Counted from the first letter of the stretch, positions 9,308 to 27,332 are shown. The stretch is 32,000 bases of DNA from an archaeon (GCA_024275415.1 JAJRZD010000081.1:1-32000), one strand, 5' to 3'. The notes: a model not told the origin generated them from the letters alone. Made by a program: numbers and translations.

Positions 9308-9460
9308 GACATGTTGCTACTCCTTTTGATTGGTGCTTTGAACGTTTCGCAATGTAAGGTCATATCCTATATTTGCAATCCACCGACGAACGTTTTGGAG
9401 AAAAATATCCGGCGGGATGATTAACATCCCACCTTCTCAATTCTCCGTCCTCTCCGCTAC

Positions 9461-9640
9461 CTACCGGCGTCTGCCAACTAGGAGTCCCATGATCATCCCG
9501 ATGAAGATTCCACCCACAGCGGCACCAGCCAACGTGAGCGAATCATATGCGGTCGGACCAAAGGCAGCCACTGCCAAAGTGACTGCTCCTATGATGGAAG
9601 CGGACAGTATTATTCCCAGAATTACATTGTTGTGTTTCAT
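9461..9640 (-). CDS. Small two-TM membrane protein, 59 aa (not in ORF track)
   Basis: Hand-translated: MKHNNVILGIILSASIIGAVTLAVAAFGPTAYDSLTLAGAAVGGIFIGMIMGLLVGRRR. GAAGGAG lies upstream and an in-frame TAG precedes the ATG. The C-terminus is nearly identical to that of the cytochrome. Confidence 0.75.
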   Translation of the reverse strand: MKHNNVILGIILSASIIGAVTLAVAAFGPTAYDSLTLAGAAVGGIFIGMIMGLLVGRRR

Positions 9641-9736
9641 AATCTATTGATACTCCTTCAATCAAATTGCTTTGATCGGTTCACAAAAGCAGGATACATT
9701 CCGTATTCGGTATGTCTACTGCAGGACTCATCGGAG

Positions 9737-9780
9737 AAAAAAAGTTGAGGGGGGGATACACGTCCCCACCTTTTGTTTTC
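9737..9780 (-). terminator. GC hairpin flanked by T-tracts after the cytochrome gene
   Basis: GGGGA-TACACG-TCCCC stem, with AAAAAAA on the left (U-tract on the minus strand) and TTTTGTTTT on the right. Confidence 0.6.
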
Positions 9781-9798
9781 CCCATTCTCATTCGCTGC

Positions 9799-11184
9799 CT
9801 AGCGGCGTCTGCCTACTAGGAGACCTAGGATCAAACCGATGAAGATTCCACCTACAGCGCCACCAGCCAACGTTAGAGTATCGTATCCAGCGGGCAGAGG
9901 TGTTGTTGGAGTTACTGTTACGGTTTCGGTTACAGTAACGGTTTCCGCTGGAACATTCGCGTGGAAGTATGCGATCGTGTCTAGCAACTTCGTGTATGCA
10001 GCTGTGACATCAGCGTACATATTCAGAGGATCGTGGAAACCGTGTGAACGATCATTTACCTGAAGGTCAACGGCATCCGCTGCCTCTGTAATGTTGGCAT
10101 ACACTTCAGCAACTAGTTCATGATCAGCACCATCAGTCGCATTGTATGCAAGAAGCTCTGCTTCAAAATCGTTGTATGTCGCTTCGAATTCTTCAACTAG
10201 GGCGTCGAAGGTGTTTTGAATCGACTCCAGTTGATTGACAGCCCACTCCTCCATTCCCTGATGACATTCTTCAGCCTGGCCACAAGCAAGGTCGGGCTTG
10301 ACAACGAATGTATGGTTCAGGAAGTAAGTGGTGTTATCACCAGGAATCGCAAGATCGTAGCCGTGACAATCGATACATTCGACACCTGCAAGGTGGTGTG
10401 GACCACCATACCAGATGTTGTAGGTATCATGGTGCGATCCAACGTGGCAAAGCGCACACAGTTGAGTCGCGTTCACAGCACGGATCATCCCAGGTCCTAC
10501 ATCCGTCCAATTGCCATGCACAGAGTGACAGGCTGGACAAGAAACAGGGTTATAATCTCCTGAAGGATCAGGGTTGTCCTGATGAATGAATCCTTCTGTT
10601 GACATACAGTGCATACAGAACGACTGCGCGTAAGCACTAGCGCGTAGGTCGGTCAACGAGTTTGCATGAGCCGAGTTCTGCCATGGGACATACTGATGTG
10701 GATGTTCCTCACCAGAGGGTCTGTGACAGTTTGAACACACCTCACCAGAGTAGTCCACGTATCCTGTGGAATTGTGACAGGCAAAGCAGTTGACTCCTAG
10801 GGAATCGTACGTAGGTGTACCCGTGGAGTTATCCCAACCGCTCGTGTGACACTGTGCACAGGACGAGTTGAAGTACGCCTGCGAGATGTTAAGGTAAGCT
10901 CCAATCTGTACATGAGTGGAGTTGACCTTTTTCATGTGAGTGGCATGTTCAGACAGGCTCCAATTGCCGTACTCGTCAGCATGACAGGTCTGACAATCAG
11001 ACGGGTCAGTACCGTAAGTCGGCAATGCAAGCTCGTGTTCTCGTCCGTCAGTCCCGACTATAGTAATCGGGATGCCGGCACCGGTTGGTCCTAGAAGAAC
11101 AGCGAATCCGATCAAGCAGAGGAACAGGTAGTATCCTGACACCATCCGCTTGCTCATCCTTGGCGAATCGGTATAGTATACCAT
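9799..11184 (-). CDS. Membrane-anchored multiheme cytochrome c (7 CxxCH plus one CxxCM and one Cx5CH) with a NrfA/HAO-like C-terminal helical region
   Basis: CQTCH, CAQCH, CFACH, CSNCH, CPACH, CALCH, CIDCH; also CMHCM and CGQAEECH. Long helices ending in DRSHGFHDP, a Thr-rich linker, a TM helix and RRR. Start placed at ATG 11184 after GGAG (ORF track 11220). Confidence 0.92.
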   Translation of the reverse strand: MVYYTDSPRMSKRMVSGYYLFLCLIGFAVLLGPTGAGIPITIVGTDGREHELALPTYGTDPSDCQTCHADEYGNWSLSEHATHMKKVNSTHVQIGAYLNISQAYFNSSCAQCHTSGWDNSTGTPTYDSLGVNCFACHNSTGYVDYSGEVCSNCHRPSGEEHPHQYVPWQNSAHANSLTDLRASAYAQSFCMHCMSTEGFIHQDNPDPSGDYNPVSCPACHSVHGNWTDVGPGMIRAVNATQLCALCHVGSHHDTYNIWYGGPHHLAGVECIDCHGYDLAIPGDNTTYFLNHTFVVKPDLACGQAEECHQGMEEWAVNQLESIQNTFDALVEEFEATYNDFEAELLAYNATDGADHELVAEVYANITEAADAVDLQVNDRSHGFHDPLNMYADVTAAYTKLLDTIAYFHANVPAETVTVTETVTVTPTTPLPAGYDTLTLAGGAVGGIFIGLILGLLVGRRR

Positions 11185-11848
11185 TGTTGATTCTCCATGT
11201 TCTTCGTGGATTACGGTCATAATAATAGAATTTGCAGGGATTTAAGTCTGTTCATCAATTAGTGGGATTAATCACAGAATAGGATGTTCTCGCGACTACT
11301 TTATTTTTGTACACCTTAATTTTGAAACCTGTTTTGCTAAAAAGTAAGCAGATTGTATGCACTACTGAAAAAATAGTAATAATCTCAAAACAATATAGGA
11401 CATGATGCTACAGGTACACGAAGAAGTACGACATTCAGCTAAAATGTTCGATATCGATAGAAACCCTGTTAGCGAGCGTCCTGTTTCATACATCACTTTA
11501 GTATAGGAACAGGAGCATGTCATCATTTTTGTCTTCCATATGCATAGATTTCTAGCATTCTTGAATGTCCTCGTTTATTGTCTGCCTTGTGGACAAAATT
11601 GCAAAATAAAAGGAGAGGAAGAAAAGAGATCTTCTTCCCTAAACTAGTTCTATCTCTTACGAGTCAGTGCTATCACAACAATGACAACAACATACCAATT
11701 ACGGCCAAGAAAATAACCTCCGTTGGAATCCACTCCATGCTGAGGTTCAGCGACGGCCTGTTCGAGAAACATACCTTTGTTATAGTCGTCAATATGAAGA
11801 CCGACTGTAATGGCTCCACCTGCTGCATCTGTAAAGGTAGAAAGAACC

Positions 11849-12295: not shown

Positions 12296-13795
12296 TCAGG
12301 GAATGAGAAGTGCAGCTGCTGCATTTGCCAGATTGGTGATAGGGGCAGGAAACCAGAACAGGACAAGTACCAGAATTGCACAGATGCCTACTATGGATAC
12401 GGGAATTCTTGGGAGTGATAGTGGACCTTCTTCACTGGCAGTCCTAAAGTACATGGCACGCACAACTCTGAAATAGTAACCTAATGAGAATGTGACATTA
12501 AGGAAAGCAAACAGACCAAGCCACCAGAGCCCAACCTCCACGGTACTCATGAAGAGTACGAACTTTGGTGTGAATCCTGCCGTGAATGGGATTCCCATGA
12601 GAGATATCATGATAATAGCAAGGAATGCTGCTGCAAGCGGATGTCTTACACTCAAACCATTCAGTTGTTCGTATGTGATCCTCTTCTGAAGCTTGATGGA
12701 CATTGCAAAGACCAAGACGAAAGCGCCTGTCTTCATAATCGCGTGTATGAAAGCAAGGAAGAACGCTGCGGATATCGCGAATTGCGTGTCTACTGCAAAC
12801 CCCACAAAGACGTAACCCATCATCGCGATGCTCGAAAAAGCAAGCATCTTGAGAATGTCCTTCTGTGCCAGAGCAAGAAAGTTGCCAATCACCATCGTGA
12901 GGATTGCAATCACCACGATGAGGGGATACCACTCGAACCTAGCTGCTATGAAACCTACCAGAAGGATCCGCGCTAATGCGCTGATACCAGTCTTCTTCGT
13001 CGCCCCTGCAAGGTAGGCTGTAACACTACCATCAGCGGCAGCATAAGTATCAGGAACCCACATCCAGCCGGGAAATATCCCGATTTTGAAACCAAACGCG
13101 ATGACGAAAAGGGCCATCGCCAATAGGAGTGTATATGCCTGTGATTCCAATGACGCGGGCGCAGCCCAGATAGCAGCTACTCCCACACCGACCTCTGCTA
13201 TCACTGTAGTGCCAAGAGCACCAAAGACCAGAGCAATCCCAAACAGCATGAATATGGTTGAGATGAGTCCCATGACGAAGTACTTTGTTGCACCGTCGAG
13301 CCCCAGCCTATCAGGACTGAGAGCAACAAGGATGTATGTAGGGGTACTCATCAACTCCCATGCCATGAATAATGCTACGAGGTCAGTGGCCATAACTACC
13401 CAAATTGCTCCAGCGAATGAGATGAGGAACAGGAAATTGTATGGCCCCTTGTCCCCACCATACTGAGTGGCGGAAATCATCACAAGAATCGCCACGAGAA
13501 GCACCAGATAGATGAAGAAATCTGCAAATGCATCACGGACGAACAAGCCTCCGAATGACACGCCGTATGTGCTTGAATCAAGCGCAGCTACTTCCAGTAT
13601 GGCCAGAATAACCCCGATGATACTGACTGGCAACGGATTATATCGAAGACCGATGATCAGAGAGAGGATAGAAAACAGGATAAGGGTTAGGACTGGAATC
13701 GAACCGTACCAGTCTGCCGGAAGCTGTACTAATACATCTCTCAGGGGTACTAACATGGCTGCAAGGATATCAGTGAATATGTTGCTTTGTATCAT
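12296..13795 (-). CDS. nuoN: Complex I-like antiporter subunit N
   Basis: AWELMS, GATKYFVMG, FGFKIG, WVPDTY, KMLAFSSIA, FTPKF and YYFRVVRAMY motifs. Confidence 0.92.
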   Translation of the reverse strand: MIQSNIFTDILAAMLVPLRDVLVQLPADWYGSIPVLTLILFSILSLIIGLRYNPLPVSIIGVILAILEVAALDSSTYGVSFGGLFVRDAFADFFIYLVLLVAILVMISATQYGGDKGPYNFLFLISFAGAIWVVMATDLVALFMAWELMSTPTYILVALSPDRLGLDGATKYFVMGLISTIFMLFGIALVFGALGTTVIAEVGVGVAAIWAAPASLESQAYTLLLAMALFVIAFGFKIGIFPGWMWVPDTYAAADGSVTAYLAGATKKTGISALARILLVGFIAARFEWYPLIVVIAILTMVIGNFLALAQKDILKMLAFSSIAMMGYVFVGFAVDTQFAISAAFFLAFIHAIMKTGAFVLVFAMSIKLQKRITYEQLNGLSVRHPLAAAFLAIIMISLMGIPFTAGFTPKFVLFMSTVEVGLWWLGLFAFLNVTFSLGYYFRVVRAMYFRTASEEGPLSLPRIPVSIVGICAILVLVLFWFPAPITNLANAAAALLIP

Positions 13796-15352
13796 TTAGG
13801 GTGAACCTCCTAGCATAAAGGCCACAACACTTTGAGTGAAGTTTAAGACTAGATCAGGCCAGAACCCAAGCAGTATGACAGGAATCATCATGAGTACCGG
13901 CGCTATTAGGTCACTCCGGGATGCCTCATGAATCTCCATCTCGGGATCAGGATCACTAAAGACCATTCGATTCAGTGTCCAAAGTATATACCCGACCGTG
14001 AGAAAGATTCCGAATCCAATAATGCCAGCCCAGATATAGATCGTGACTGCGCCGAACAGTATTAGAGCCTCAGCAATGAATCCGCTGAAACCAGGAAGCC
14101 CAAACGCAGCCAGTGCGGCGAGGATGAAGACAGAGGTCATGTGCGGGGCCTTTGCAAGTAGACCCTTGATCTTAGTGATCTCACGGGTGCCTGCGGCATA
14201 TTTGAGCTGTCCGGCCATGATAAACATCACAGAGATGATGGTTCCATGAGAGAACATCATGAATATGGCACCTTGAATTGCAAGATGTGCAGCACTCTGA
14301 AGAACAGGATCGGAGCTAGCTAGACCAGCGGCCCCAACTGACACACCCAGAAGAACCCAAGACATGTGATTGATTGAGGTATATGCTACCATGGATTTCA
14401 TGTCGGTCTGAGCCATAGCTGTGAATGCCGCATAGATACAGGTGAATACTGCCAGAATCGCAAGAGGAATGCTCAAACGAGCGAACCCTCCAGGAATCAT
14501 CCAGAGACCTAACCTGATGAACGCATAGCCTCCCATCTTCAGCAGGATGCCAGCAAGAATGACAGAACCTGGAGTGGGTGCTTTGACATGCGCCCACGGG
14601 AGCCAATTGTGAAGTGGAAACACGGGGAGCTTGACTCCAGCACCCATGAACACAGCCAGCGCGAACCCGATTTGAATCTCAGGAGAGAGTCCCATGTTCC
14701 GCAGGAGAACCATATTGAAAGTGGGCGTTGGTGCCACGAAGAATAGCACAAAGAATGAGATGACCATGATTGCTGAGCCGAAATGGGTATAGATGACAAA
14801 CTTGACAGCTGCATGCTGTGCTCCTTCCTCACCCCATTTGCCAATGATGAAGAACATGGGTATCAGGACAAGCTCCCAAAAGACAAAGAAGCTGAAAAGG
14901 TCGATGGACATGAAAACCCCCAAGAGTCCTGATTGGAGCATCAGGAAGAACCCGTAGTACATGGACTTGGATTCCTTGATGTGATTGGAGCTTATGGCAG
15001 CAATCAAGACGACCAGATTTGAGAGGATGATCATGACTATCGAAAGTCCATCCACACCAAGCAGGATTTGTAACACTGGGGGATTCTCACCTGTTGCAAG
15101 AGCCGTGATAGTGAACTGCCAGCCCAATGCACCACCAGTGGGGTCATCAAGTTGGATTGCTGGATCGACTATCAGCCCCAGAATGATGGACAGGACGAAC
15201 TCGATGATAACGATGACCATGGTGATAGCTCTTGCTGTCCTTGAACCGAGGATAATCACAGCAAACGCTGCAATCAATGGTAGGAACAGCATAAATGGAA
15301 GGATGCCCAAGGGCAACGCGGAAACGATTGATTGAATGATATCCATCTGCAT
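13796..15352 (-). CDS. nuoM: Complex I-like antiporter subunit M (canonical copy)
   Basis: GVDGLS, FWELVLIPMFF, VKLPVFPLHNWLP, GILLKMGGY, AYTSINHM and GFIAE motifs. Confidence 0.93.
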   Translation of the reverse strand: MQMDIIQSIVSALPLGILPFMLFLPLIAAFAVIILGSRTARAITMVIVIIEFVLSIILGLIVDPAIQLDDPTGGALGWQFTITALATGENPPVLQILLGVDGLSIVMIILSNLVVLIAAISSNHIKESKSMYYGFFLMLQSGLLGVFMSIDLFSFFVFWELVLIPMFFIIGKWGEEGAQHAAVKFVIYTHFGSAIMVISFFVLFFVAPTPTFNMVLLRNMGLSPEIQIGFALAVFMGAGVKLPVFPLHNWLPWAHVKAPTPGSVILAGILLKMGGYAFIRLGLWMIPGGFARLSIPLAILAVFTCIYAAFTAMAQTDMKSMVAYTSINHMSWVLLGVSVGAAGLASSDPVLQSAAHLAIQGAIFMMFSHGTIISVMFIMAGQLKYAAGTREITKIKGLLAKAPHMTSVFILAALAAFGLPGFSGFIAEALILFGAVTIYIWAGIIGFGIFLTVGYILWTLNRMVFSDPDPEMEIHEASRSDLIAPVLMMIPVILLGFWPDLVLNFTQSVVAFMLGGSP

Positions 15353-15353
15353 T

Positions 15354-17675
15354 TTACAGAACCCCCATTGTTATGAGAATCACCAGTATCATTATTCCCA
15401 GACCGAAGATGATGACAGAAACATAGTCATTGATGCGTCCTGTCTGAACGGCTTGACCTGATTCTGAGGCGCCAACACTATGGGTTGATACACCTTCCGC
15501 GAAGCCATCAACGATATGGTCATCAAACCAGCGGACACGCCGCGAGATTTCCTTGGCAGTATCAGCAGACTTGAAGTCAATCCCGTCAATTATCTTGTTA
15601 TCAACCCGGACACGCCACCACTCGGCAGAGTTCAGGTACTTGTTGAGGATCCAGTAATAGAACTCGTTGATATACCACCTGTGTCGCAGGAAATTGTAGA
15701 CCTTGCGCCGTATCCCAGTTTCAGGAACGAATGTGTTGGGCCTGTCAGCATTCTTAATGTAAATGATGTAACCAGGTATGCCACCAAGTGCAAGAGCACC
15801 CAGTGTGATCATGAACGGGACGATGCCAGCCTCACTGAACTTTACAAAAATCATCTCTTGCAAGATGACACCCCATTCTTCCTCAGTCCTGAGAAGGAAG
15901 TTCTGGATGAATGGGAAGACTAGAAATGCGATGATAGTGAACGCCGCCAAAAGATACAGGGGAACCATCATGGCTGGACCCGGATCATGTGGCGTCGAGT
16001 GATGCTCCTCTTCCTCATGTCCTTTGGAGTGATCATCTTCATCAGACCCATCATGATGACCAGACTCGTGACTTTCATGTTCAGTCTTCTCAGGACCATA
16101 GAAGGTCAGTCCCATCAATCTGAAGCTATAGAAGATCGTACATGCAGCTGCGAGAACCGAGAAAAGGAACACTAACCATCCAACAGATATGAACAATGTT
16201 CCTCCGTGAGAGGTAATCTCTTGTTCGACGATCATCAATTCATACGAGTATTCGATGATTGAATCCTTTGACCAGAACCCTGAGAATGGAGGTATCCCAG
16301 CAAGCGCAAGAATGCCAATCCACATGACAGCAAACGTCTTTTTCATGTGCTTTTTCAGACCACCCATTTTCGACACGTACTTCGTGTGGATAGCATGGAT
16401 GACCCCACCAGAAGCAAGAAAGAGAAGTGCCTTGAACGCACCATGTGAAATGATATGCAAGATACTTGATAGATATGCCTTGTCATATGCGATATGAAGC
16501 TCGGTCAGATTCAAGACTTCATGAGCATAAATCCCGTAAAACGCAAGCAGCCCTGCGGCGCCAAGTCCCAACATCATGTAACCTAGTTGACTCAGGGTCG
16601 AGAACGCCAGGATCTGCTTTAGCTCGTTCGAGGCGATACCCATAGTTGCAGTCAGCAAAGCTGTGACCGCACCAATAACAGCTACAACGATGAAGAAGAA
16701 TGTGATCACATCTGCCCCGGAAAGCTGTAGAAGGGATAGTCCGTGCTCTCCACCACCGCCATCTCCTGCTGAAACAGCTTGAGCACTGACTATGGTCAGA
16801 AGGAATCGTGCAGTGATGTAGATACCAGCCTTGACCATCGTTGCTGCGTGGATGAGGGCTGAAACTGAGGTTGGACCAGCCATTGCTTCTGGTAGCCATA
16901 CTTGCAAGGGGGCTTGTCCGGACTTGCCAATCGCTCCCATGAAGATGAGGAGGAATGTAGGAACAAGCATTCCAATCCCAGCCATGACACCCCACCAGTT
17001 TTGAAAGTTCTCGGACATAAGGCTGAAAGAGAAAGTACCTGTGAATGTGAAGAGCAAGAGGATTCCGCCAAGCATGAAAGCATCACCAATCCTTGTGACG
17101 ATGAATGCTTTCGTACCAGAATGCGTGTTGTATTGCCCCTCTGTTTCGAACTGGAGAAGAGGGTTCTTGTATTCTATTGGGTCAGGCTCGACCTCCGGTG
17201 GATTACGCTTGTCATTCCAGAAACCGATGAGTCCATAGGAGCAGAAGCCCATTATCTCCCAGCCGATGAATGCAATGAGAAGGTTATTGCTCAGCACAAG
17301 TGTAAGCATTCCTCCACCAAATGCAAGCATGAGGAAGAAGAATCTGTCGCGGTCCTCTTCATGCGCCATGTATTCGGTGGAGTAGACATAGATGAGAAAA
17401 CTCAGTGTGCTGGCAAGTACTGCCATAATAATGGAAAGAGGGTCAAGGAGCATCTCAAAGTTGATGCCAAGATATTCAATCCAGACCCACGAAGTAGTGC
17501 CAGTAGGATTGTCTGCTTCAGCAAGGAGTGACCAGGATAGTACCATAGTGATTCCCATGATAATCGCAGGAGTCCAGTCTCTGAGCTTCTCACTGAATTT
17601 TCCAACCACTGGAACTAGTAAGGAACCGGCAAGAGGGAGCACCAAGATGAGATAGTAGGGTAAGCCAAATATCAT
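15354..17675 (-). CDS. nuoL: Complex I-like antiporter subunit L with an extended lateral helix
   Basis: GWEIMG, TRIGD, GKSGQAPLQVWLPEAMAGPTSVSALIHAATMVKAG, FSTLSQLGYM, HGAFKALLFL, FWSKD, and C-terminal QTG..DY with a final TM helix; 773 aa. Confidence 0.95.
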   Translation of the reverse strand: MIFGLPYYLILVLPLAGSLLVPVVGKFSEKLRDWTPAIIMGITMVLSWSLLAEADNPTGTTSWVWIEYLGINFEMLLDPLSIIMAVLASTLSFLIYVYSTEYMAHEEDRDRFFFLMLAFGGGMLTLVLSNNLLIAFIGWEIMGFCSYGLIGFWNDKRNPPEVEPDPIEYKNPLLQFETEGQYNTHSGTKAFIVTRIGDAFMLGGILLLFTFTGTFSFSLMSENFQNWWGVMAGIGMLVPTFLLIFMGAIGKSGQAPLQVWLPEAMAGPTSVSALIHAATMVKAGIYITARFLLTIVSAQAVSAGDGGGGEHGLSLLQLSGADVITFFFIVVAVIGAVTALLTATMGIASNELKQILAFSTLSQLGYMMLGLGAAGLLAFYGIYAHEVLNLTELHIAYDKAYLSSILHIISHGAFKALLFLASGGVIHAIHTKYVSKMGGLKKHMKKTFAVMWIGILALAGIPPFSGFWSKDSIIEYSYELMIVEQEITSHGGTLFISVGWLVFLFSVLAAACTIFYSFRLMGLTFYGPEKTEHESHESGHHDGSDEDDHSKGHEEEEHHSTPHDPGPAMMVPLYLLAAFTIIAFLVFPFIQNFLLRTEEEWGVILQEMIFVKFSEAGIVPFMITLGALALGGIPGYIIYIKNADRPNTFVPETGIRRKVYNFLRHRWYINEFYYWILNKYLNSAEWWRVRVDNKIIDGIDFKSADTAKEISRRVRWFDDHIVDGFAEGVSTHSVGASESGQAVQTGRINDYVSVIIFGLGIMILVILITMGVL

Positions 17676-17687
17676 TTCATGATCACC

Positions 17688-19241
17688 TCATGGAGTTGGG
17701 GCTTGGAATGGTATGATGTTCGCAATTTCACTGACAACCGGCACAATGACATCTAGTGCAACACCCGGGAATATCCCAAAGAATACGATAAGGAATCCCA
17801 GAATGATCATCGGGACTGTCATGGAACGCGGCCCTTCGACAACATCCGCAAGTTCTTGAGGGTGCGGGCCTAAGAATACCTTCCATAGGAATCTGAGCAT
17901 GTAGCCTGCACTCAATATCGAACTTAGTACAGCCAGTATACTGAGACCCAGCATCAATGGCTGCACAATGGCTTCACTTCCTGGAGGTGCGGCAGCATGG
18001 AACCCTCCAACGAACATCATCCACTCACTCGCAAATCCAGACAGCGGTGGACTACCTGCAATGCTCATCGCACCGATTGCAGCCATGAATGCCGTAATGG
18101 GCATCTTGTTAGAAAGGCCTCCCATCTCGTCGATGTTACGTAGTCCGGTCTGGTGCATCACTGCTCCAGCAGTCATGAATAGCAAGCCCTTTGAGAATGC
18201 GTGGTTTATTAGATGGAAGAGACCTCCTGATACGCCATAGACCGAGAAGACACCCAGAGCAAAAAGGACATAGCCCATCTGGCTCACAGATGAATACGCA
18301 AGCAATCTCTTGATGTCTTTCTGAACGAGTGCCATGAACCCACCGTAGAACATGGTAATTACACCAATCGCAGCAACATATACCGAAAGGTCAAATGCGG
18401 CAGAACCGAGGGTAATGGTGCCGAACCGTACGAGCGCATATGCGCCAGTTTCAATCATAGCACCTGACAGGAGGACCGAAATGGGCGTAGGAGCCTCAGC
18501 ATGAACGGGAGGGAGCCACCAGTGAATCGGGAACACAGCTAGCTTCACCAGAAATCCTGCAGCGAGTAAGATGAATATGATCTTCAATAGCTCCGATGCA
18601 CCGACATATGACGCAATCATTCCTTGGATGACTGCCAGCTCGAATGTCGTGGCGCCACTGAGGAAATAGAGAAGACCGAAGCCGATAAGGATACAGACAG
18701 CTCCACTCTGAGTGTATAACCAGAACTTGAGAGCGGTTCGTTTCCGGGTTTCAGGAAGTCCCCAGAACAGAATCAGGAAGTAAGAGGGCACCAGCATGAG
18801 TTCCCATGCGATGAAGAACTCGATGAGGTTTGTCGCAAGGGTGACCCATTGCATACCCATAATGAAAAAGAGCTGGTTTGCAAAGAACGTCGGGCGACTG
18901 TGCTCGTGGGATGTATAACCCACTGCATAAACAACTGAAAGGAATCCCAGAATGACTACTGCAAAAGTGATTGGGAACGCGATCCCATCGAGCCTGAGAC
19001 CGAATGCCCCTAAGATGTCGGACCATGCAAGGGTCTCTTGAGCAATGTTATACAAGCGCTCTTCGAACATGACACGGTAGAACGGAGGTAGCATCAGAAC
19101 TACTGCGAGCCCCGATACCAACGCAGCAATCTTTCCTGCGCTTTTTTCCAGCCTGCCTCTCATAAGGTAGATGGCAAGAGCTCCAATAAAGAGCACAGCG
19201 AGAGATGTGCCCATGAATGGAAATTCAAACGCAGTCTGCAT
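17688..19241 (-). CDS. nuoM: Second NuoM-like antiporter subunit (M')
   Basis: AWELMLVPSYFLI, VKLAVFPIHWWLPPVHAEAPTPISVLLSG, KRLLAYSSVSQMGY and GFASEW motifs. An MrpD/HyfF-type origin is not excluded. Confidence 0.75.
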   Translation of the reverse strand: MQTAFEFPFMGTSLAVLFIGALAIYLMRGRLEKSAGKIAALVSGLAVVLMLPPFYRVMFEERLYNIAQETLAWSDILGAFGLRLDGIAFPITFAVVILGFLSVVYAVGYTSHEHSRPTFFANQLFFIMGMQWVTLATNLIEFFIAWELMLVPSYFLILFWGLPETRKRTALKFWLYTQSGAVCILIGFGLLYFLSGATTFELAVIQGMIASYVGASELLKIIFILLAAGFLVKLAVFPIHWWLPPVHAEAPTPISVLLSGAMIETGAYALVRFGTITLGSAAFDLSVYVAAIGVITMFYGGFMALVQKDIKRLLAYSSVSQMGYVLFALGVFSVYGVSGGLFHLINHAFSKGLLFMTAGAVMHQTGLRNIDEMGGLSNKMPITAFMAAIGAMSIAGSPPLSGFASEWMMFVGGFHAAAPPGSEAIVQPLMLGLSILAVLSSILSAGYMLRFLWKVFLGPHPQELADVVEGPRSMTVPMIILGFLIVFFGIFPGVALDVIVPVVSEIANIIPFQAPTP

Positions 19242-19673
19242 CTAACGAAACCTCCTTCCTCTCCACTCCAAAGGCTCTCTGTCGAGCGTTGTAATCTTTT
19301 CAGGGCCATAGATCAGGTCTTCTCGCTCTCCCTCTGCCATATCGACAATTGGAGTGTGGTAGAGGGCATCGAACCTGCAAGCGTCCACACAGAGCCCACA
19401 GAATATACAGCGGGTATAGTCAAAGTAGAGTGCAGCATCCTTCTCGTACATCTTATCTGCCTTGTCAATTCGGATGGCAAGAACTGGACAGGCACGCACA
19501 CATTGAGCACAAGCTGTACAATTCTGACGGACATGTATGTGTCGCCCGCGAGTACGTTCAGGGTAGGGTCTATCCTCGAAGGGGTAGAGGCTAGTAAACG
19601 GTCTCTTGAAGATTTGTCGGAAGATATGCTTCAGTATGGTAAAGACTTCGCCAAGATTTCTAAGGAATCCCAT
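19242..19673 (-). CDS. nuoI: Complex I-like 2x[4Fe-4S] subunit I
   Basis: CTACAQCVRACP and CIFCGLCVDAC; also T.LYPFE and R.RGRH. Confidence 0.93.
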   Translation of the reverse strand: MGFLRNLGEVFTILKHIFRQIFKRPFTSLYPFEDRPYPERTRGRHIHVRQNCTACAQCVRACPVLAIRIDKADKMYEKDAALYFDYTRCIFCGLCVDACRFDALYHTPIVDMAEGEREDLIYGPEKITTLDREPLEWRGRRFR

Positions 19674-19679
19674 CTCATT

Positions 19680-20822
19680 CTAACCTCCCACAAGCAAAAG
19701 TGCCAGTCCAGGCACATAGACAATGGCAAGCATTGCTATTATGACATTCAACATTGATAACGGCAGCAGGTACTTCCAGCAGTATCTCACAATTTGATCC
19801 TGCCTGAGCCTGTGAAACGATGAGCTCACTGTCACAAAGACAAAGAGCATGATCAAGAACTTGATGATGAAGTTCACTGCCCCAGGTAGCCATGGAACCC
19901 CATAGAAGCCTCCAAAGAAGAAGGTCACCATGAGGGCTGAATAGAGCATCTGCTCAGCAAACTCCGCAAAATAGGTAAGTGTGAAATAGACTCCTGAGAA
20001 TTCCGTGCGCCACCCAAAGATGATCTCAGAATCTGCAACAGGAGCATCGAATGGGAACACACCTACAGAGATTATAGATGCAGTCAAGAACGTCGCGAAG
20101 TTGATTGGTAGCAGAAAGATGAACCAGACCGAACTTTGAGCTAGGGCAATACCCATGATGCTGAGAGACCCAGCCAGCATAGCAGGACCCACTGACGACA
20201 TGATCATCGGAATTTCAGCGGCAAATTGATTGTTAGCAGCCCTGAATCCTCCAATAAGTGAGTATTTGGATCCACTTATCCATCCGGCAAGCAAAGCTAT
20301 CACAGGTACTGCTGCAAGGAATGCGAATACGAGCACCAGACTGACAGATAGATCTGCAATGAACCAGACCGTGTCCCAAGGAATGAAAGCGAATGGAACC
20401 AACACCACCACTAAGAGCAGAGATGGCAAGAACCGGTATGCCCACCGATGCGCTTTGTCTGGAATGATGATCTCCTTGGATATCAACTTGATCGCATCAG
20501 CAAAAAGCTGGACTCCACCGTACTTGCCCATGTGCATCGGGCCCCGACGCATCTGGATACGTCCCCAGAGCTTTCGTGTGAACCAGACAAAAAAGATGAG
20601 CCCCATCACAACGAAGATGAGCCCTGGAAATATGACAGCTTTGAACAAGAAGAAGATATTGTCGATGACAAGCGTCCATAGAAGATTGATCACGACCCAT
20701 AGCCAATCATATATCCCATAGATGATTCCTCTAATCACCTCGATGATATTGAATACCCATTGTGGGAGTCCCCTTAGCCAATCTACGAACCATTCGAATT
20801 GCAAGACTGCGCCTCCTGTCAT
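19680..20822 (-). CDS. nuoH: Complex I-like membrane subunit H
   Basis: RKLWGRIQMRRGP, ADAIKLISKE, PFDAPVADSEIIFG, TEFSG and RLRQDQ motifs. Start placed at ATG 20822, overlapping the nuoD stop as TAATG (ORF track 20837). Confidence 0.93.
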   Translation of the reverse strand: MTGGAVLQFEWFVDWLRGLPQWVFNIIEVIRGIIYGIYDWLWVVINLLWTLVIDNIFFLFKAVIFPGLIFVVMGLIFFVWFTRKLWGRIQMRRGPMHMGKYGGVQLFADAIKLISKEIIIPDKAHRWAYRFLPSLLLVVVLVPFAFIPWDTVWFIADLSVSLVLVFAFLAAVPVIALLAGWISGSKYSLIGGFRAANNQFAAEIPMIMSSVGPAMLAGSLSIMGIALAQSSVWFIFLLPINFATFLTASIISVGVFPFDAPVADSEIIFGWRTEFSGVYFTLTYFAEFAEQMLYSALMVTFFFGGFYGVPWLPGAVNFIIKFLIMLFVFVTVSSSFHRLRQDQIVRYCWKYLLPLSMLNVIIAMLAIVYVPGLALLLVGG

Positions 20823-21958
20823 TATCTGTCCCACCACCCCGGATACGGGTCTAGACTTCCGAATATCACAATGAAGTCAGCAAACCTCGCACTTGGAACC
20901 AAGTGCTTCAATGCATAATATGAATGGAAACACGGCCCACGGATCTTGGCTCGATAAGGAGTCTGCGCCTTTTCCAATGTCTTTAACCAAAGCGAAGTGA
21001 TGCCTCTTGCGCCCTCGACTCGGCCATATGCCTCTCCTTCTGGCAAGCGGTTAGCCTTGGCGCGTGCCTTGGGGTCAATAATCGGACCATCGGGAATCTG
21101 TGGAATAAGCTGTTTAATTATGTCCACTGAGGTCTTCACTTCGTTGAATCGCTGAACCATCCTGTCATAGGCATCACTCTCTCCTGGGTGGTCGGGGTGC
21201 TCTAGGATCGGAACCTCCCAGTCCACCATATCATATGCCAGATTCGGATCCGGCTGATCCTTTCTCAAATCCATTGGGATGCCACATGCCTTGATGTTGG
21301 GTCCTGAAAGACCCCAGCGCAAAGCCTCTTTAGCCGAATATTGTCCTACGCCTTCAGTACGCATCCTGAAAAGTGGGCTTTTCATCAACATATCCTCGAA
21401 TTTTGGCATGTTATATTCTAGCACTTGAATGGCTTTCTCCAGTTTTGCCAGAACTTTCTCAGTAAAGTCGAATCGTAATCCTCCAGGAGTGCTAAAATGC
21501 GGCGAGTGTCGCACACCTGTGAGTTCCTCGAAGGTATCCAGAAAGAACTCCCTGTCAACCCAGGGCCAGAGTGTCATCGCAAAGAATCCCATTTCAGCAG
21601 ACAGCTGTCCCCACCAGAATTGATAGGAATGTATCCTGCTGGCCTCCATCATGATCGTCCGGAGCACCTTTGCTCGTTCAGGTACTACTAACCCGGCGAT
21701 CTGCTCTACAGCGCTGATATATGGGTACTCCGCAAGGAAAGCTTCGAGCATACATAATCGCTCAAGGATTGGTGAACCCTGTCGAAAGTTACGATACTCG
21801 AGGCATTTCTCTGCAGACCTGTGAAAATACCCGGCATGAGGATCACACTCCACTATGAAGTCGCCTACAAGTTTCAACTTGGTGGCCCAGCCATGGGCAG
21901 ATACGTGCTGAGGTCCAAACCAGACCTCCACTGTTTCATCAAGGATGTCAGGTGTCAT
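20822..21958 (-). CDS. nuoD: Complex I-like subunit D (no NiFe site)
   Basis: GPQHVSAHG, GYFHRSAEK, GEAYGRVEGARG and PYRAKIRGP motifs, ending DPYPGWWDR. No RxCxxC/DPCxxC pairs. Confidence 0.92.
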   Translation of the reverse strand: MTPDILDETVEVWFGPQHVSAHGWATKLKLVGDFIVECDPHAGYFHRSAEKCLEYRNFRQGSPILERLCMLEAFLAEYPYISAVEQIAGLVVPERAKVLRTIMMEASRIHSYQFWWGQLSAEMGFFAMTLWPWVDREFFLDTFEELTGVRHSPHFSTPGGLRFDFTEKVLAKLEKAIQVLEYNMPKFEDMLMKSPLFRMRTEGVGQYSAKEALRWGLSGPNIKACGIPMDLRKDQPDPNLAYDMVDWEVPILEHPDHPGESDAYDRMVQRFNEVKTSVDIIKQLIPQIPDGPIIDPKARAKANRLPEGEAYGRVEGARGITSLWLKTLEKAQTPYRAKIRGPCFHSYYALKHLVPSARFADFIVIFGSLDPYPGWWDR

Positions 21959-22461
21959 TTCTTAGCACCTCCTTCAGGTCTGGGTTTCCTGACTGGAAGA
22001 CCGGTTTCTGCTTGTCTGCTGCGGTCGGTCTGGAAGCTCTTACGCATCGGGTATTTGCCTACGAGCTCGTCCGGTAAAAGAAGCGGACGCAGGTCAGGAT
22101 GACCCGTGAACATAATTCCGAACATCTCGTGTGTTTCACGTTCGTGCCATTCTAAACCAGAAAAGATGTCACAGCATGCTGGGAGTGAAGGGTTCGAGCC
22201 CTCCAAGTTCACCTTGAGTTGGATGATCATCCGGTCTTTGTGCGACCAGAACATGTAGTTGACCTGGTACTTGTCATCACCCAGATCAACACCGAACGCG
22301 GATTCGGGAATAACCTCTGGGAAAGTTTCATCGACCAAAGTGATGACATCGCGAATTATGTCCTTGCCCACTGTGAACTCGATGTGATGTTCGTTTATCG
22401 TCTTGACATCTATGTCAGGAAATTTGGTGGTGAATGTCCGCACAATCCCTGCTGCATCCAT
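21955..22461 (-). CDS. nuoC: Complex I-like subunit C
   Basis: WHERETHEMFGIMFTGHPDLRPLLLP and YPMRK motifs; overlaps the nuoD start by 4 nt. Confidence 0.93.
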   Translation of the reverse strand: MDAAGIVRTFTTKFPDIDVKTINEHHIEFTVGKDIIRDVITLVDETFPEVIPESAFGVDLGDDKYQVNYMFWSHKDRMIIQLKVNLEGSNPSLPACCDIFSGLEWHERETHEMFGIMFTGHPDLRPLLLPDELVGKYPMRKSFQTDRSRQAETGLPVRKPRPEGGAKK

Positions 22462-22462
22462 C

Positions 22463-22774
22463 TCATTTCACCTCTGCTTGTACTGGACTGCCAAGATCCA
22501 CATGTCCGTACCTGCGGTTGTACAATAGCATAAGAACCAAAGCAAGGGCTGTGTGTGCAGCTGCTATTGCGATCACTAGGATGACAAGTCCTTGAGGAGT
22601 GTAGGAGAAGACTCCGCCGTAGACTGCAAAAGCTACAAGGGCGATGTTCACACCATTCCCCATTATCTCAGCCCCGATAAGGATACGAATCAGGTTCCTT
22701 TTCACTATCATGCCATAAGCACCTAGACCGATGAGCATGAATGCCACAACCAGATACCAACTCAGTGGAACCAT
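22463..22774 (-). CDS. nuoK: Complex I-like subunit K
   Basis: KRNLIRILIGAEIMGNGVN and AIAAAH; 3 TM helices. Confidence 0.9.
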   Translation of the reverse strand: MVPLSWYLVVAFMLIGLGAYGMIVKRNLIRILIGAEIMGNGVNIALVAFAVYGGVFSYTPQGLVILVIAIAAAHTALALVLMLLYNRRYGHVDLGSPVQAEVK

Positions 22775-23394
22775 CAGTTCGTTGCCTCCTCTGTCTTCTC
22801 ATCATCGGGCATTGGGGCCGCCTCGACTCCGAACTCGGCTGTGATGTCCTTCAAGGTCTCTGCCTTTTCCATCTTCATCAGAGCGAGTGTCCCAACCAGT
22901 GTAGTAAGGATGATCAAAGCAATAATTTGAACGTAGAGCCCGTGGGATTGCCAGAGCCATTCCGCCAGTCCTTGTAGACTCTGGGCATATTCCGGCATTC
23001 CTTGAGGGATGTCTGTTGACCATGGAAATACCAAAGCAAGCCCTCCAGACATTGCCATGACGAAAGCAGAAAGAAGCAGCCCTATTTTCCGTGCACGCGG
23101 CGAGGGAAGCACTTCCAGTGTCCGATCCTGTGCTCTGGGAAGAAGCAACACTCCAAATATGATCAATGCACTGATACCACCAGTGTATACCGCTATCTGC
23201 ATCCCTGCTATGAAAGGCGCTTCAAGTAATAGGAAAAGTCCTGCAACGAAGCTTGCCATGACGCCAAAGAAGAAAGCAGCATATACTATGTCCTTGTGCT
23301 CAAGGGCCAGATATCCAAATACCAAGATAATGCCAGCCAATAGGAGGAATTCGACTTGCTCGAATAGCTGCAGGAGTGGGTCTAGTTCTTGCAT
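22774..23394 (-). CDS. nuoJ: Complex I-like subunit J
   Basis: LLEAPFIAGMQIAVYTGGISALIIFGVLL; 5 TM helices. Confidence 0.9.
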   Translation of the reverse strand: MQELDPLLQLFEQVEFLLLAGIILVFGYLALEHKDIVYAAFFFGVMASFVAGLFLLLEAPFIAGMQIAVYTGGISALIIFGVLLLPRAQDRTLEVLPSPRARKIGLLLSAFVMAMSGGLALVFPWSTDIPQGMPEYAQSLQGLAEWLWQSHGLYVQIIALIILTTLVGTLALMKMEKAETLKDITAEFGVEAAPMPDDEKTEEATN

Positions 23395-23405
23395 CTCATT
23401 TCACC

Positions 23406-23837
23406 TCAATGCATGTGCTTAGTTTTCTGGGCTTTCTTGGCTTCATGATAGAGTTCCAGTGTTTCTTTCCCGTCCAGTGCTGCCTGCGGCAGAATCCTCA
23501 TTGAAAAGCTGATGGCTCCCATGATGAGAGCAATGAAGATCAGTGCCTGCCAGAGAATAAGTGCCTCTAGCCTTAGGGTCGAGGCAGAGAGAAGCCAGAG
23601 AAAGGCGCCCATCACGTCGATCACCACGAACAATATCGTATAGACGATGTAGTTGTAAGGGTAGGAAATACGGGCAGGGCCGATTGGATCCTCACCACAT
23701 TCGTACGGGGATGTCTTTGAAGAGTTCTGAAGGACATGCGGTCGTAACACCCAAGAAGCCAGAAGCATCACAATGACAAGAACCACAGCCAGAAGGGCCC
23801 ACACAACTACAGGAATAAAATCCACAAATAGCCTCAT
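23406..23837 (-). CDS. nuoA: Complex I-like subunit A
   Basis: KTSPYECGEDP and FVVIDV motifs; 3 TM helices. Start placed at ATG 23837 after GAGGAGG (ORF track 23879). Confidence 0.92.
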   Translation of the reverse strand: MRLFVDFIPVVVWALLAVVLVIVMLLASWVLRPHVLQNSSKTSPYECGEDPIGPARISYPYNYIVYTILFVVIDVMGAFLWLLSASTLRLEALILWQALIFIALIMGAISFSMRILPQAALDGKETLELYHEAKKAQKTKHMH

Positions 23838-23921
23838 AATCCAGATTCCTCCTCGCTCAGATGAAGGGGTTGATAGCATCTGCGAATAACCTTGGCAATC
23901 CTAGACAGTTTGGAATAGGTG

Positions 23922-23930
23922 CTTATATAC
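23922..23930 (-). promoter_or_regulatory. Putative TATA box of the nuo operon
   Basis: GTATATAAGC on the minus strand, about 85-90 nt upstream of the nuoA ATG. The orientation is ambiguous because the plus strand reads TTATATA. Confidence 0.35.
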
Positions 23931-24330
23931 GACTGGACAGGACTATGACACAAGGTCGAACGACACGCGATGCTGACCACACAGAATCGTTCCCAGTGCC
24001 GTTTCTGGGAGGACAAAACTCTGGTGTCCGGATTTGCCCCGATTACAATTAACGGTAGGTAACTCATCGCTTGACCAGTGAAATCAATGATCGACGTTTG
24101 AAGCATTATTAGTCCTTCTCTTAATGTTTCCATGTGATCGATTGCGAGCGACAGGAATAGTAACCAAATGATAAACTTCTCGTTCATCTTTGGAACAAGC
24201 CCTGTAGCTTGAGAATGGCGACATGCACTGCCCTATTAAAAACTCTTCGCAGGACGGGGTCTTTCTCGGAGAAGTTAAATATCCCAGTTATTCCTTACAG
24301 GCTTGGTTCAAAACCGTTAGGAGAAAGATA

Positions 24331-24681
24331 ATGTTGAATCGAGACGAAGGAGGTTTCTTCTACTATGTTGCCCTACTGGCTGGAATGTTTCTCATCGGCA
24401 CGTACCTATGGCATATCCTAGTCACACCTACTGGATATCAAGGATTCCATTTCATCATGTATGCCACTGGGTTCCTGTTACCTGTTTCAGCATTTGGATT
24501 TGCATTCGCAAAAGCAAGAACTTCGCGGGTGGGGTTAACTGTCATCACAGGGGTAATTGCAGGCATTCATTTCTTCTTAGAAATCACACTATTTGGGTCA
24601 TTCGTGGGTGTGATACTGTTCGCGTGGATGTCGTTTGGCTTACTCCTCGCTTTTGCAGCTTTCAGTTGGTTGCTTGAGTGA
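24331..24681 (+). CDS. Hypothetical 4-TM membrane protein
   Basis: Four hydrophobic segments. Start placed at ATG 24331 after AGGAG (ORF track 24223). Confidence 0.7.
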   Translation: MLNRDEGGFFYYVALLAGMFLIGTYLWHILVTPTGYQGFHFIMYATGFLLPVSAFGFAFAKARTSRVGLTVITGVIAGIHFFLEITLFGSFVGVILFAWMSFGLLLAFAAFSWLLE

Positions 24682-24702: not shown

Positions 24703-25194
24703 TTACTCTTTTTCAGTTTCTACCGTTGTAGCTTCTAATTCAAATTCGACATCAGGAGCAACAGGACCATAATGGAGCTTGCTCACATCCATTATCCCTT
24801 CGGTGTATGCTTCGTCATCACGCGTCATCTTCAACATTGCTGCACCACCAGATGCGACGATAGCAGAACCGATTCCCCACGAGGCATACCAGATCGTGTC
24901 AGCTACGTCCCATTGGAATGACACAAGAGTCAGGATAATGAACATGACTGACACAAAAGATGCGATAGATAGAAACAGGTTCTTCATCTTCCCTCGATCG
25001 GGTACGAAATAGCCAAGTAGCAACACCGACAACAGAATGGGGCCACCAAGTAGAAAGGCCAGATTGGAAGTTTCGAAGGCCGCTGACCCTGTGGTCATCT
25101 TGAAGATGAACTCAACAAAATATGCGGTCATCATCACGACTCCAATCCAGAACATGCAATACCTATCTGCGTCCTCATTCAACCTGCGATTCAT
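24703..25194 (-). CDS. Hypothetical 4-TM membrane protein with an acidic tail
   Basis: Four hydrophobic segments. Its start overlaps the stop of the FAD-NuoB gene (ATGA). Confidence 0.8.
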   Translation of the reverse strand: MNRRLNEDADRYCMFWIGVVMMTAYFVEFIFKMTTGSAAFETSNLAFLLGGPILLSVLLLGYFVPDRGKMKNLFLSIASFVSVMFIILTLVSFQWDVADTIWYASWGIGSAIVASGGAAMLKMTRDDEAYTEGIMDVSKLHYGPVAPDVEFELEATTVETEKE

Positions 25195-27146: not shown

Positions 27147-27191
27147 CAGGTTGTCCAGACACCACTTGCTTTGCGATTGACTTCATGCCTG

Positions 27192-27199
27192 CATAAAAA
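27192..27199 (-). promoter_or_regulatory. Putative TATA box of the FAD-NuoB gene in a divergent promoter region
   Basis: TTTTTATG on the minus strand, 45-60 nt upstream of the candidate starts. A plus-strand TTTAAG near 27255 could serve the divergent gene. Confidence 0.4.
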
Positions 27200-27332
27200 C
27201 CTAGCGAGTGACCTACATCTTAGCGTAGACTTGAATGGGAAGGTATTTGTGGACTTTAAGCTTGGTTCTGATAGCAAGAAAAAGGAATTCGATGCGATAC
27301 ACATTTCAACGCAAAACAGTGAGGTAAGAAAC

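Follow-up and report, generated by a model that had tools for sequence, protein, structure and literature searches.

A 2M-type complex I-like operon in a Thorarchaeotal genome, with NuoB encoded outside the operon as a flavoprotein fusion

Introduction

Does an archaeal gene cluster with four antiporter-like subunits and no NADH module encode a complex I of the 2M type, and if so, what supplies its NuoB subunit and its electrons? The question is raised by an operon at positions 12296-23837 of a 32,000-nucleotide stretch of DNA (GCA_024275415.1 JAJRZD010000081.1:1-32000), the whole of which is referred to here as the window. Judged by its genes, the locus clearly belongs to the known 2M design and is an Asgard representative of it, with a lineage-specific relocation of NuoB and its fusion to a flavoprotein. 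The best protein matches in database searches were all to Candidatus Thorarchaeota, identifying the host as an archaeon, and its genome is represented by a 3.5-Mb assembly that is 92.9% complete. The usual models treat Thorarchaeia as fermentative or acetogenic.

The 2M complex I is defined, in the passages of PMC6606698 that deal with it, by a second NuoM together with a lengthened NuoL, and heterotrophic marine Thaumarchaea carry clade 2 of this form according to the relevant part of PMC7300363. The criteria of Chadwick, Hemp, Fischer and Orphan (2018, ISME J 12:2668) were taken as relayed in portions of PMC6606698, PMC7117926 and PMC7300363. Both marks of the form were found at the present locus: a second NuoM-type subunit lies in the same cassette, recognised by the model TIGR01972, by the glutamate of transmembrane helix (TM) 12 and by its place in an M-type clade, and the lateral helix of NuoL is longer by approximately one subunit width (26 residues) than that of archaeal NuoL from clusters with three pumps. 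An earlier reading made from the sequence alone had proposed a 2M-type complex in an archaeon. The 2M assignment stood, while NuoB proved to be present, the subunit that it had labelled M' proved to be of an ordinary archaeal type, and the design was already known from archaea. Particular to this lineage are the relocation and fusion of NuoB.

Gene content of the operon

Eleven back-to-back open reading frames (ORFs) were identified on the minus strand in the order A-J-K-C-D-H-I-M'-L-M-N, each matching its expected family in Pfam and NCBIfam. Adjacent ORFs either lie 0-12 nt apart or overlap by 1-16 nt, so that the order and near-zero spacing described in the sequence-only reading were confirmed by ORF coordinates and family matches alike. 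The same applies to its count of four antiporter-like subunits, as the genome as a whole (tblastn and PF00361 scan) was found to encode four PF00361 proteins, all of them in this operon. Further copies of NuoA, C, D, H, J or K were not detected in the 92.9%-complete assembly. The genes, listed here against the direction of transcription, would supply the membrane arm and most of the peripheral arm of the complex.

12296-13795, minus strand: nuoN-type antiporter-like subunit, 499 aa (PF00361; TIGR01770 NDH_I_N is the top family)
13796-15352, minus strand: nuoM of the canonical NuoM type, 518 aa (TIGR01972, 400 bits against a cut-off of 264)
15354-17675, minus strand: nuoL, 773 aa, with a lengthened lateral helix (NuoL families are the top matches)
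15489-15566, minus strand: 26-residue module of the NuoL lateral helix, NuoL residues 704-729 (C-terminal alignment and motif spacing)
17688-19241, minus strand: M', second M-type antiporter-like subunit, of the archaeal M type, 517 aa (TIGR01972, 309 bits against a cut-off of 264)
19242-19673, minus strand: nuoI, 143 aa, two [4Fe-4S] clusters (Fer4 families, TIGR01971)
19680-20837, minus strand: nuoH, 385 aa (PF00146, 282 bits)
20822-21958, minus strand: nuoD, 378 aa (PF00346)
21955-22461, minus strand: nuoC, 168 aa (PF00329, 96 bits)
22463-22774, minus strand: nuoK, 103 aa (PF00420)
22774-23394, minus strand: nuoJ, 206 aa (PF00499)
23406-23837, minus strand: nuoA (PF00507)

Identity of the M-type subunits

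Raw similarity alone does not single out one family for M', which lies at about the same distance from several, the top matches among solved structures being MrpA (198 bits), MbhH (190), MbsH' (183), NdhD (171) and E. coli NuoM (159), while the top structural match of M is E. coli NuoM at 218 bits. Nevertheless, M' clears the cut-off of the NuoM subfamily model, and three of its key residues are those of NuoM, namely glutamate in TM5, lysine in TM7 and glutamate in TM12. At the last of these positions, TM12 carries a lysine in NuoL, NuoN, MrpA and MrpD as opposed to the glutamate of NuoM and M'. The key residues of M are E/K/K/E, and N possesses the TM12 lysine and groups with E. coli NuoN in the tree.

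A tree of M and M', which the sequence-only reading had called for, was built from 97 sequences with IQ-TREE (LG+C20+F+G4), using as references E. coli NuoL, NuoM, NuoN, HyfB, HyfD and HyfF, three Mrp operons, and the Nuo subunits of Sinorhizobium meliloti and Rhodococcus. M' was placed inside a 35-row M-type clade shared with canonical NuoM (SH-like approximate likelihood-ratio test, SH-aLRT, 100), which leaves out the MrpA plus NuoL, MrpD and NuoN clades and the Hyf subunits. The grouping that the sequence-only reading had named as a refutation was thus not observed. M fell within the canonical NuoM clade (SH-aLRT 100), and a FastTree analysis that included 45 database representatives agreed on the placement of M'. 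Forcing the M' group together with MrpD was rejected (delta log-likelihood 32.5; approximately unbiased test, p-AU 0.004), the group tested being one defined after inspection of the tree. M' was thus rejected as an Mrp subunit, given its position outside the MrpA and MrpD clades, this test and its TM12 glutamate in place of lysine, and on these sequence characters it is an M-type subunit. A stand-alone Mrp antiporter was likewise rejected, all neighbouring genes being of Nuo types.

The partners of M' inside the M-type clade are the single NuoM of ammonia-oxidising archaea and the L-adjacent subunit (usually just after L) of three-pump Asgard and Bathyarchaeia clusters, the large subunit of which carries true NiFe motifs. 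In complex I-type archaeal clusters, M' lies immediately before L. The M of the window, on the other hand, groups with bacterial NuoM and with the M of all other archaeal four-pump clusters. As three-pump archaeal relatives have no canonical-type M, the one located between L and N is, by gene order and phylogeny, the added subunit, and M' is the ordinary archaeal M type.

Lateral helix of NuoL

Alignment of NuoL C-termini from 29 loci showed the 26-residue insert in the NuoL of every four-pump cluster and in no archaeal three-pump NuoL. In the window NuoL, D..I.DG motifs repeat at residues 692 and 718. The distance between the motifs NRWYxN and QTG was found to be 51-55 residues in three-pump loci (n=42), compared to 78-80 in 16 of 19 four-pump loci, with 73 in one and 107 in two. 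This corresponds to approximately 27 residues per neighbouring subunit, which at 1.5 Å per residue is close to the subunit width of ~39 Å. In an AlphaFold2 (AF2) model of NuoL, which has a mean predicted local distance difference test score (pLDDT) of 71, residues 655-740 are predicted to be helical and TM16 to lie at 748-769, with a pLDDT below 50 there. Since the helix is one module longer than in three-pump archaeal relatives, the four antiporter-like subunits are probably strapped into a single arm by a NuoL helix extended by one 26-residue module (~39 Å).

Some further features of NuoL were observed among these loci. Helix insert aside, Thorarchaeotal NuoL exceeds other archaeal NuoL by 40-100 residues, owing to loops that fragment the PF00361 match, and stretches of low confidence in the AF2 model lie at residues 301-318 and 532-559. 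Two Hodarchaeota-type loci (L016, L040) have a long NuoL helix with a spacing of 81, and the stretch fetched showed L and one M'-type gene only. The spacing of 107 belongs to two Promethearchaeota 2M loci (L057, with NuoL at L057:6946-9246, and L069), where approximately two extra modules are found yet the cassette holds four antiporter-like genes; elsewhere in the same genome, a different contig carries two more antiporter-like genes side by side, and nuoN is adjoined by an HdrD-like gene.

NuoB as a flavoprotein fusion

The sequence-only reading had stated that nuoB is absent. This was refuted by a gene on the same strand, 1.3 kb upstream of the operon.

25191-27146, minus strand: GlcD-like flavin adenine dinucleotide (FAD) flavoprotein fused to NuoB, 651 aa (PF01565, PF02913 and PF01058)

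The encoded protein consists of FAD_binding_4 and FAD-oxidase_C domains followed by a C-terminal Oxidored_q6 domain. NuoB models match it with 173-180 bits, above their cut-offs (NF005012, 180 bits against 116), and the four cysteines of cluster N2, at fusion residues 517, 518, 582 and 612, all align with those of E. coli NuoB. Because the other four PF01058 matches in the genome adjoin [NiFe]-hydrogenase large subunits, the fusion holds the only NuoB of the complex I type. Its C-terminal domain is, on this reading of the sequence, the NuoB of the complex, supplied in trans.

The fusion was found in all nine of the other genomes of the family that were checked, either in the operon neighbourhood or across the whole genome. 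It is also kept where the gene is no longer linked to the operon as in the window, lying 6.7 kb further upstream in one genome (G128) and on another contig in a second (G075). The sister family (G112) and Ca. Heimdallarchaeum aukensis share the order J-K-B-C-D-H-I-M'-L-M-N, where a free NuoB is flanked by K and C. A further genome (G025) has an operon without B and a free NuoB of 186 aa elsewhere, adjoining hypD and 63% identical to the NuoB domain of the fusion. These arrangements would form a series in which NuoB is at first in the operon, then free and unlinked, and finally fused to the flavoprotein; such a stepwise displacement may allow the origin of a new input module to be followed through dated stages.

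Peripheral arm, E-channel and electron-input genes

The residues that connect redox chemistry to pumping were compared with those of characterised complexes. All eight cluster cysteines of NuoI align with E. coli NuoI. Most E-channel residues of H, A, J and K are conserved: NuoH retains the equivalents of E. coli E157, D213, E220, E228, K274 and K303, NuoJ those of Y59 and E80, and NuoK that of E36, with E72 replaced by histidine. The top structural match of NuoD is MbsL (6u8y_L, 212 bits), followed by Nqo4 (194 bits). The equivalent of Nqo4 His38 is kept, while Asp86-Tyr87 is replaced by Cys-Met. The motifs RxCGxC and DPCxxC are absent from NuoD and present in the three-pump Asgard and Bathyarchaeia relatives aligned alongside it, for which reason a group 4 [NiFe] hydrogenase (MBH, Hyf or Ech) was rejected. 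An MBS-like sulfur reductase was also rejected as a family assignment, since the locus lacks an Mrp module and its NuoD retains His38 and has no Cys385 equivalent.

With regard to electron input, no NuoE, NuoF or NuoG was found in the window (Pfam and NCBIfam), nor was NuoF (PF01512) in the 92.9%-complete genome, in keeping with the absence of nuoEFG noted from the sequence. Compared to a canonical 14-subunit Nuo complex, the NADH module is thus missing, and the NuoB and NuoI cysteines and the E-channel residues are in place. The accompanying statement that fpoF is lacking holds for the operon but not for the genome, in which an orphan FrhB/FpoF-type gene (356 aa, two [4Fe-4S] clusters with FrhB_N and FrhB_C) was identified on another contig (C66:30691-31761, equivalent to L120:4192-5262). 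Its neighbours encode a CLC channel, GTP cyclohydrolase II and an NTPase, and hydrogenase genes do not adjoin it.

Such an orphan could serve as the input protein of an F420H2 dehydrogenase of the Fpo/Fqo type, especially as fpoF is unlinked from the fpo operon in Methanosarcina and the present gene does not stand beside hydrogenase genes. This assignment is nonetheless highly improbable, considering that no cofH, a gene of F420 biosynthesis, was found in the genome and that the FpoL, FpoD and FpoH models score far under their cut-offs and under the Nuo models.

Located further along the window is a gene relevant to the membrane carrier.

30558-31604, minus strand: MenA-like 1,4-dihydroxy-2-naphthoate (DHNA) polyprenyltransferase (TIGR00751 menA, 113 against a cut-off of 102)

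Of 45 other genomes of the family, 34 have a MenA-like gene, in many cases on the same contig at 10-30 kb from the operon.

Proposed function and alternatives

The complex probably works as a redox-driven 2M ion pump without an NADH module, with NuoB supplied in trans and with electrons passing from ferredoxin and/or a 2-hydroxyacid to a membrane carrier. We infer its assembly, donor, acceptor, direction and stoichiometry from sequence comparison. Reduced ferredoxin would dock at NuoI, and/or a 2-hydroxyacid would be oxidised by the flavoprotein module, after which electrons would travel via the NuoI clusters and N2 to a carrier in the pocket formed by NuoD, NuoB and NuoH. This carrier is probably a prenylated naphthoquinone made with the syntenic MenA. 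The E-channel and the four antiporter-like subunits could then move up to five ions per electron pair.

From textbook potentials, electron transfer from ferredoxin to menaquinone yields about 70-80 kJ per two electrons, enough for five ions at ~150 mV, whereas NADH to menaquinone (~47 kJ) and lactate to menaquinone (~22 kJ) yield too little. Given that these latter energies are insufficient, a four-pump arm fits either a donor at the level of ferredoxin or operation in reverse. In the second case, ion influx would drive electrons from a 2-hydroxyacid (D-lactate, about -190 mV) or from quinol to ferredoxin, at a cost for lactate of about 50-60 kJ per two electrons on textbook potentials, or roughly four to five ions. 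The fusion of NuoB to a flavoprotein of the lactate/glycolate dehydrogenase family, and its pairing with the HdrD-like protein described below, are consistent with such a role, and reverse electron transport has been proposed, in the portion of PMC6606698 concerned, for 2M complexes without an NADH module, such as that of Nitrospira. However, the GlcD equivalog model scores only 154 against a cut-off of 568 on the flavoprotein, and complex I-type enzymes are reversible, so that the sequence gives no direction. We regard reverse running as unlikely, and forward pumping from ferredoxin and/or a 2-hydroxyacid as the better account.

Several observations weigh against this account. As regards the fourth pump, the centre of TM8 in M' carries a glutamate where NuoM has a lysine (K265). 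The pLDDT of the AF2 model falls below 50 across the NuoL lateral helix. In the tree of L, only two independent changes in pump number were identified, each accompanied by a change in the helix (independent-pairs test, 2 pairs), and with only two independent gains or losses the perfect concordance of helix and pump number across 59 loci carries little statistical weight. Moreover, the NuoL of a Rhodococcus plasmid with a single nuoM aligns across the insert region, although this may be a misalignment. Helix length by itself is no proof of a fourth pump. As regards the acceptor, NuoD lacks the quinone-ligating Tyr87, and searches of the 92.9%-complete genome found no MenD, MqnA/D or MqnC.

The first group of these points could mean that M' is encoded without being a working fourth pump, with a surplus strap or with M' in an assembly or structural role, in which event the stoichiometry would be four or fewer. 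The loss of the central TM8 lysine and the mere two co-transitions of helix and pump would be expected under this explanation. Against it stand the retention of the TM5 glutamate, TM7 lysine and TM12 glutamate, the high conservation of M' across the family (see below), and the fact that the M' type is the sole M subunit of the complex I of ammonia oxidisers, where it must function. A non-pumping M' is accordingly considered very unlikely. The TM8 site lies at approximately residue 267 of M', in the motif MIETGAYA; glutamate is found there in Asgard M' and in most M'-type subunits of hydrogenase clusters, and glycine in the M' of ammonia oxidisers, Bathyarchaeia and Promethearchaeota.

The second group of points bears on whether a quinone is the acceptor at all, and must be read together with a gene divergent from the fusion.

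27111-28556, plus strand: HdrD/GlcF/TfrB-like iron-sulfur protein with Fer4_8 and two CCG domains (Pfam, NCBIfam)

This gene is syntenic in Thorarchaeotal loci at 72-81% identity, and a second HdrD-like gene adjoins the independent Asgard 2M cluster of L057 and L069. An HdrD-like CCG protein docking on the peripheral arm could pass electrons to a soluble disulfide or similar compound, a scheme already put forward for the head-less Fpo-like complex and HdrD of Methanomassiliicoccales, and the NuoD without the quinone tyrosine and the missing head-group pathway would suit such a non-quinone acceptor. On the other side, the syntenic MenA-like prenyltransferase scores above its curated cut-off, the NuoH and E-channel residues lining the quinone cavity are kept, and Tyr87 is also absent in ammonia-oxidising archaea, which use menaquinone. 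Furthermore, GlcD and an HdrD-like protein form the known two-subunit pairing of D-lactate dehydrogenase, which would put the HdrD-like protein on the donor side. A soluble acceptor is therefore judged improbable. The missing Tyr87 was itself rejected as an argument against a quinone, as a tyrosine in this column is absent from all archaeal relatives aligned, ammonia oxidisers included. A MenA-like gene with no naphthoquinone head-group pathway suggests scavenging of the head group or a route of some other kind.

The combination of the four-pump arm with the flavoenzyme-NuoB fusion, the HdrD-like protein, the MenA-like enzyme and a neighbouring membrane-anchored multihaem cytochrome with its Ccm maturation genes might represent an undescribed Asgard respiratory chain in which a 2-hydroxyacid dehydrogenase is built into the pump. 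The dehydrogenase could then feed electrons into the complex in addition to ferredoxin, or it could form the low-energy end of a lactate:ferredoxin oxidoreductase that is driven by the gradient and requires the fifth ion. This extension is a tentative one that we think has some chance of being correct, though a minor one.

Relationship to known complexes

Clade 2 of the archaeal 2M form resembles the Thorarchaeotal operon, in the published passages that describe it, in having four antiporter-like subunits of which two are M-type, a lengthened NuoL helix and no NuoEFG. The 2M-type clusters of Nitrososphaeria and Bathyarchaeia share the M'-L-M-N order. Thorarchaeotal sequences and those of the Thaumarchaeota and Bathyarchaeia 2M complexes nevertheless lie on separate branches, J-K precedes C-D-H-I in the Thorarchaeotal operon, and NuoB has left that operon to become fused to a flavoprotein. 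The NDH-1 of ammonia oxidisers (A-B-C-D-H-I-J-K-M-L-N) also lacks NuoEFG, has an M'-type M before L and possesses a NuoD without Tyr87, but differs in having three pumps, a motif spacing of 54-55, a stand-alone B in the operon and no canonical-type M.

In Methanomassiliicoccales, a head-less Fpo-like complex is found together with HdrD and is thought to take ferredoxin. Such complexes, including that of Methanothrix (cited in a passage of PMC9723677), are comparable to the present one as pumps with no dedicated NADH or F420 module and with an associated HdrD-type protein. They differ from it in possessing three antiporter-like subunits and a free FpoB, as against four such subunits, a NuoB fused to a GlcD-like flavoprotein and a nearby MenA-like gene. 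The MbsL subunit of the Pyrococcus furiosus sulfane reductase MBS (PDB 6U8Y, PMC7684303) shares with Thorarchaeotal NuoD a cysteine equivalent to Cys85, a relic of the [NiFe] site, and the lack of Tyr87; the MBS cysteines are not catalytic (PMC7684303). MBS, however, has an Mrp-type Na+ module, two H subunits, no His38 and a retained Cys385, whereas the Thorarchaeotal locus has no Mrp-module genes, keeps His38, has lost the Cys385 equivalent and shows the complex I layout of A, H, J and K.

Distribution and evolution

The survey of archaeal genomes suggested in the sequence-only reading recovered the full gene order, without variation, in all Thorarchaeotal loci fetched (at least 12), and the M'-L-M-N module in Heimdallarchaeia, other Asgard archaea, Bathyarchaeia and some Nitrososphaeria. 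Of 43 genomes sampled from the family, 32 carry an M' of at least 69% identity. M' reaches this level in more than 120 Thorarchaeota protein clusters, and is the best conserved of the four antiporter-like subunits in most Thorarchaeotal loci compared. As the operon encodes the only antiporter-type pump in the genome and M' is so widely conserved, the complex is probably central to energy conservation in these archaea, which are relatives of the lineage of the eukaryotic host.

Outside the family, the module was found in Ca. Heimdallarchaeum aukensis, in other Promethearchaeota with the order B-C-D-H-I-J-K-M'-L-M-N, in Bathyarchaeia as A-H-J-K-M'-L-M-N, and in 12 of the 201 Nitrososphaeria sampled, several of these 12 having genomes close to 1.2 Mb in size. 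The Thorarchaeotal sequences together with those of G025, G112 and Heimdallarchaeum form their own branch in all four subunit trees, and the archaeal M subunits all fall in one clade. The M that precedes L would thereby be one old archaeal type, common to group 4 hydrogenases, ammonia oxidisers and 2M complexes, and the 2M state would have arisen by the addition of a canonical-type M and one helix module.

An Asgard survey (10.1101/2024.07.04.601786) describes shorter hydrogenase-like complexes in Heimdallarchaeia, and a literature search found no publication on the Thorarchaeal complex. Among the clusters collected, the 2M clusters of Bathyarchaeia (L052-L056, L067) contain membrane genes only, and in one Nitrososphaeria locus (L115) B, I and C lie divergently upstream of the 2M membrane genes. 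The second nuo cluster of S. meliloti pSymA (L031; NZ_CP021819.1 577886-592313) also has four antiporter-like genes, in an arrangement where L looks replaced or split: J-K, an MrpD-family gene (487 aa), a hypothetical gene (84 aa), an MrpD-like gene (586 aa), and then M-N-A-B-C-D-E-F-G.

Neighbouring genes

Two small genes lie between the operon and the fusion gene.

24223-24681, plus strand: small membrane protein with approximately four TM helices by hydropathy (orthologues of 117-131 aa)
24703-25194, minus strand: 163-aa membrane protein with three to four TM helices by hydropathy, its start overlapping the stop of the fusion gene by 4 nt

The first was found in the same place in Thorarchaeotal loci with 27-55% identity, and the second is kept beside the fusion gene in these loci with 36-40% identity; neither has a family match in Pfam or NCBIfam. 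Together with the HdrD-like gene, both are syntenic with the fusion in most Thorarchaeotal loci for which the upstream flank was fetched.

Directly upstream of nuoA, a dispersed repeat of ~190 bp was identified at window positions 23866-24056, with the look of a miniature inverted-repeat transposable element (MITE) and at least 25 other copies in the genome on about 20 contigs (72-92% identity). For nuoA, the start at 23837 was preferred to that of the longest ORF at 23879, because the longer start would fall within this repeat and orthologues are mostly 142-155 aa in length. A 117-aa ORF at 23834-24187 was rejected as a gene, being unconserved in Thorarchaeotal loci and overlying the repeat.

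On the other side of the operon, window positions 1-11220 contain genes for Ccm cytochrome c maturation (CcmA, B, C, E and F-like) and for a multihaem cytochrome of 473 aa that carries TM segments at either end, an inventory that is unusual for a lineage modelled as fermentative.

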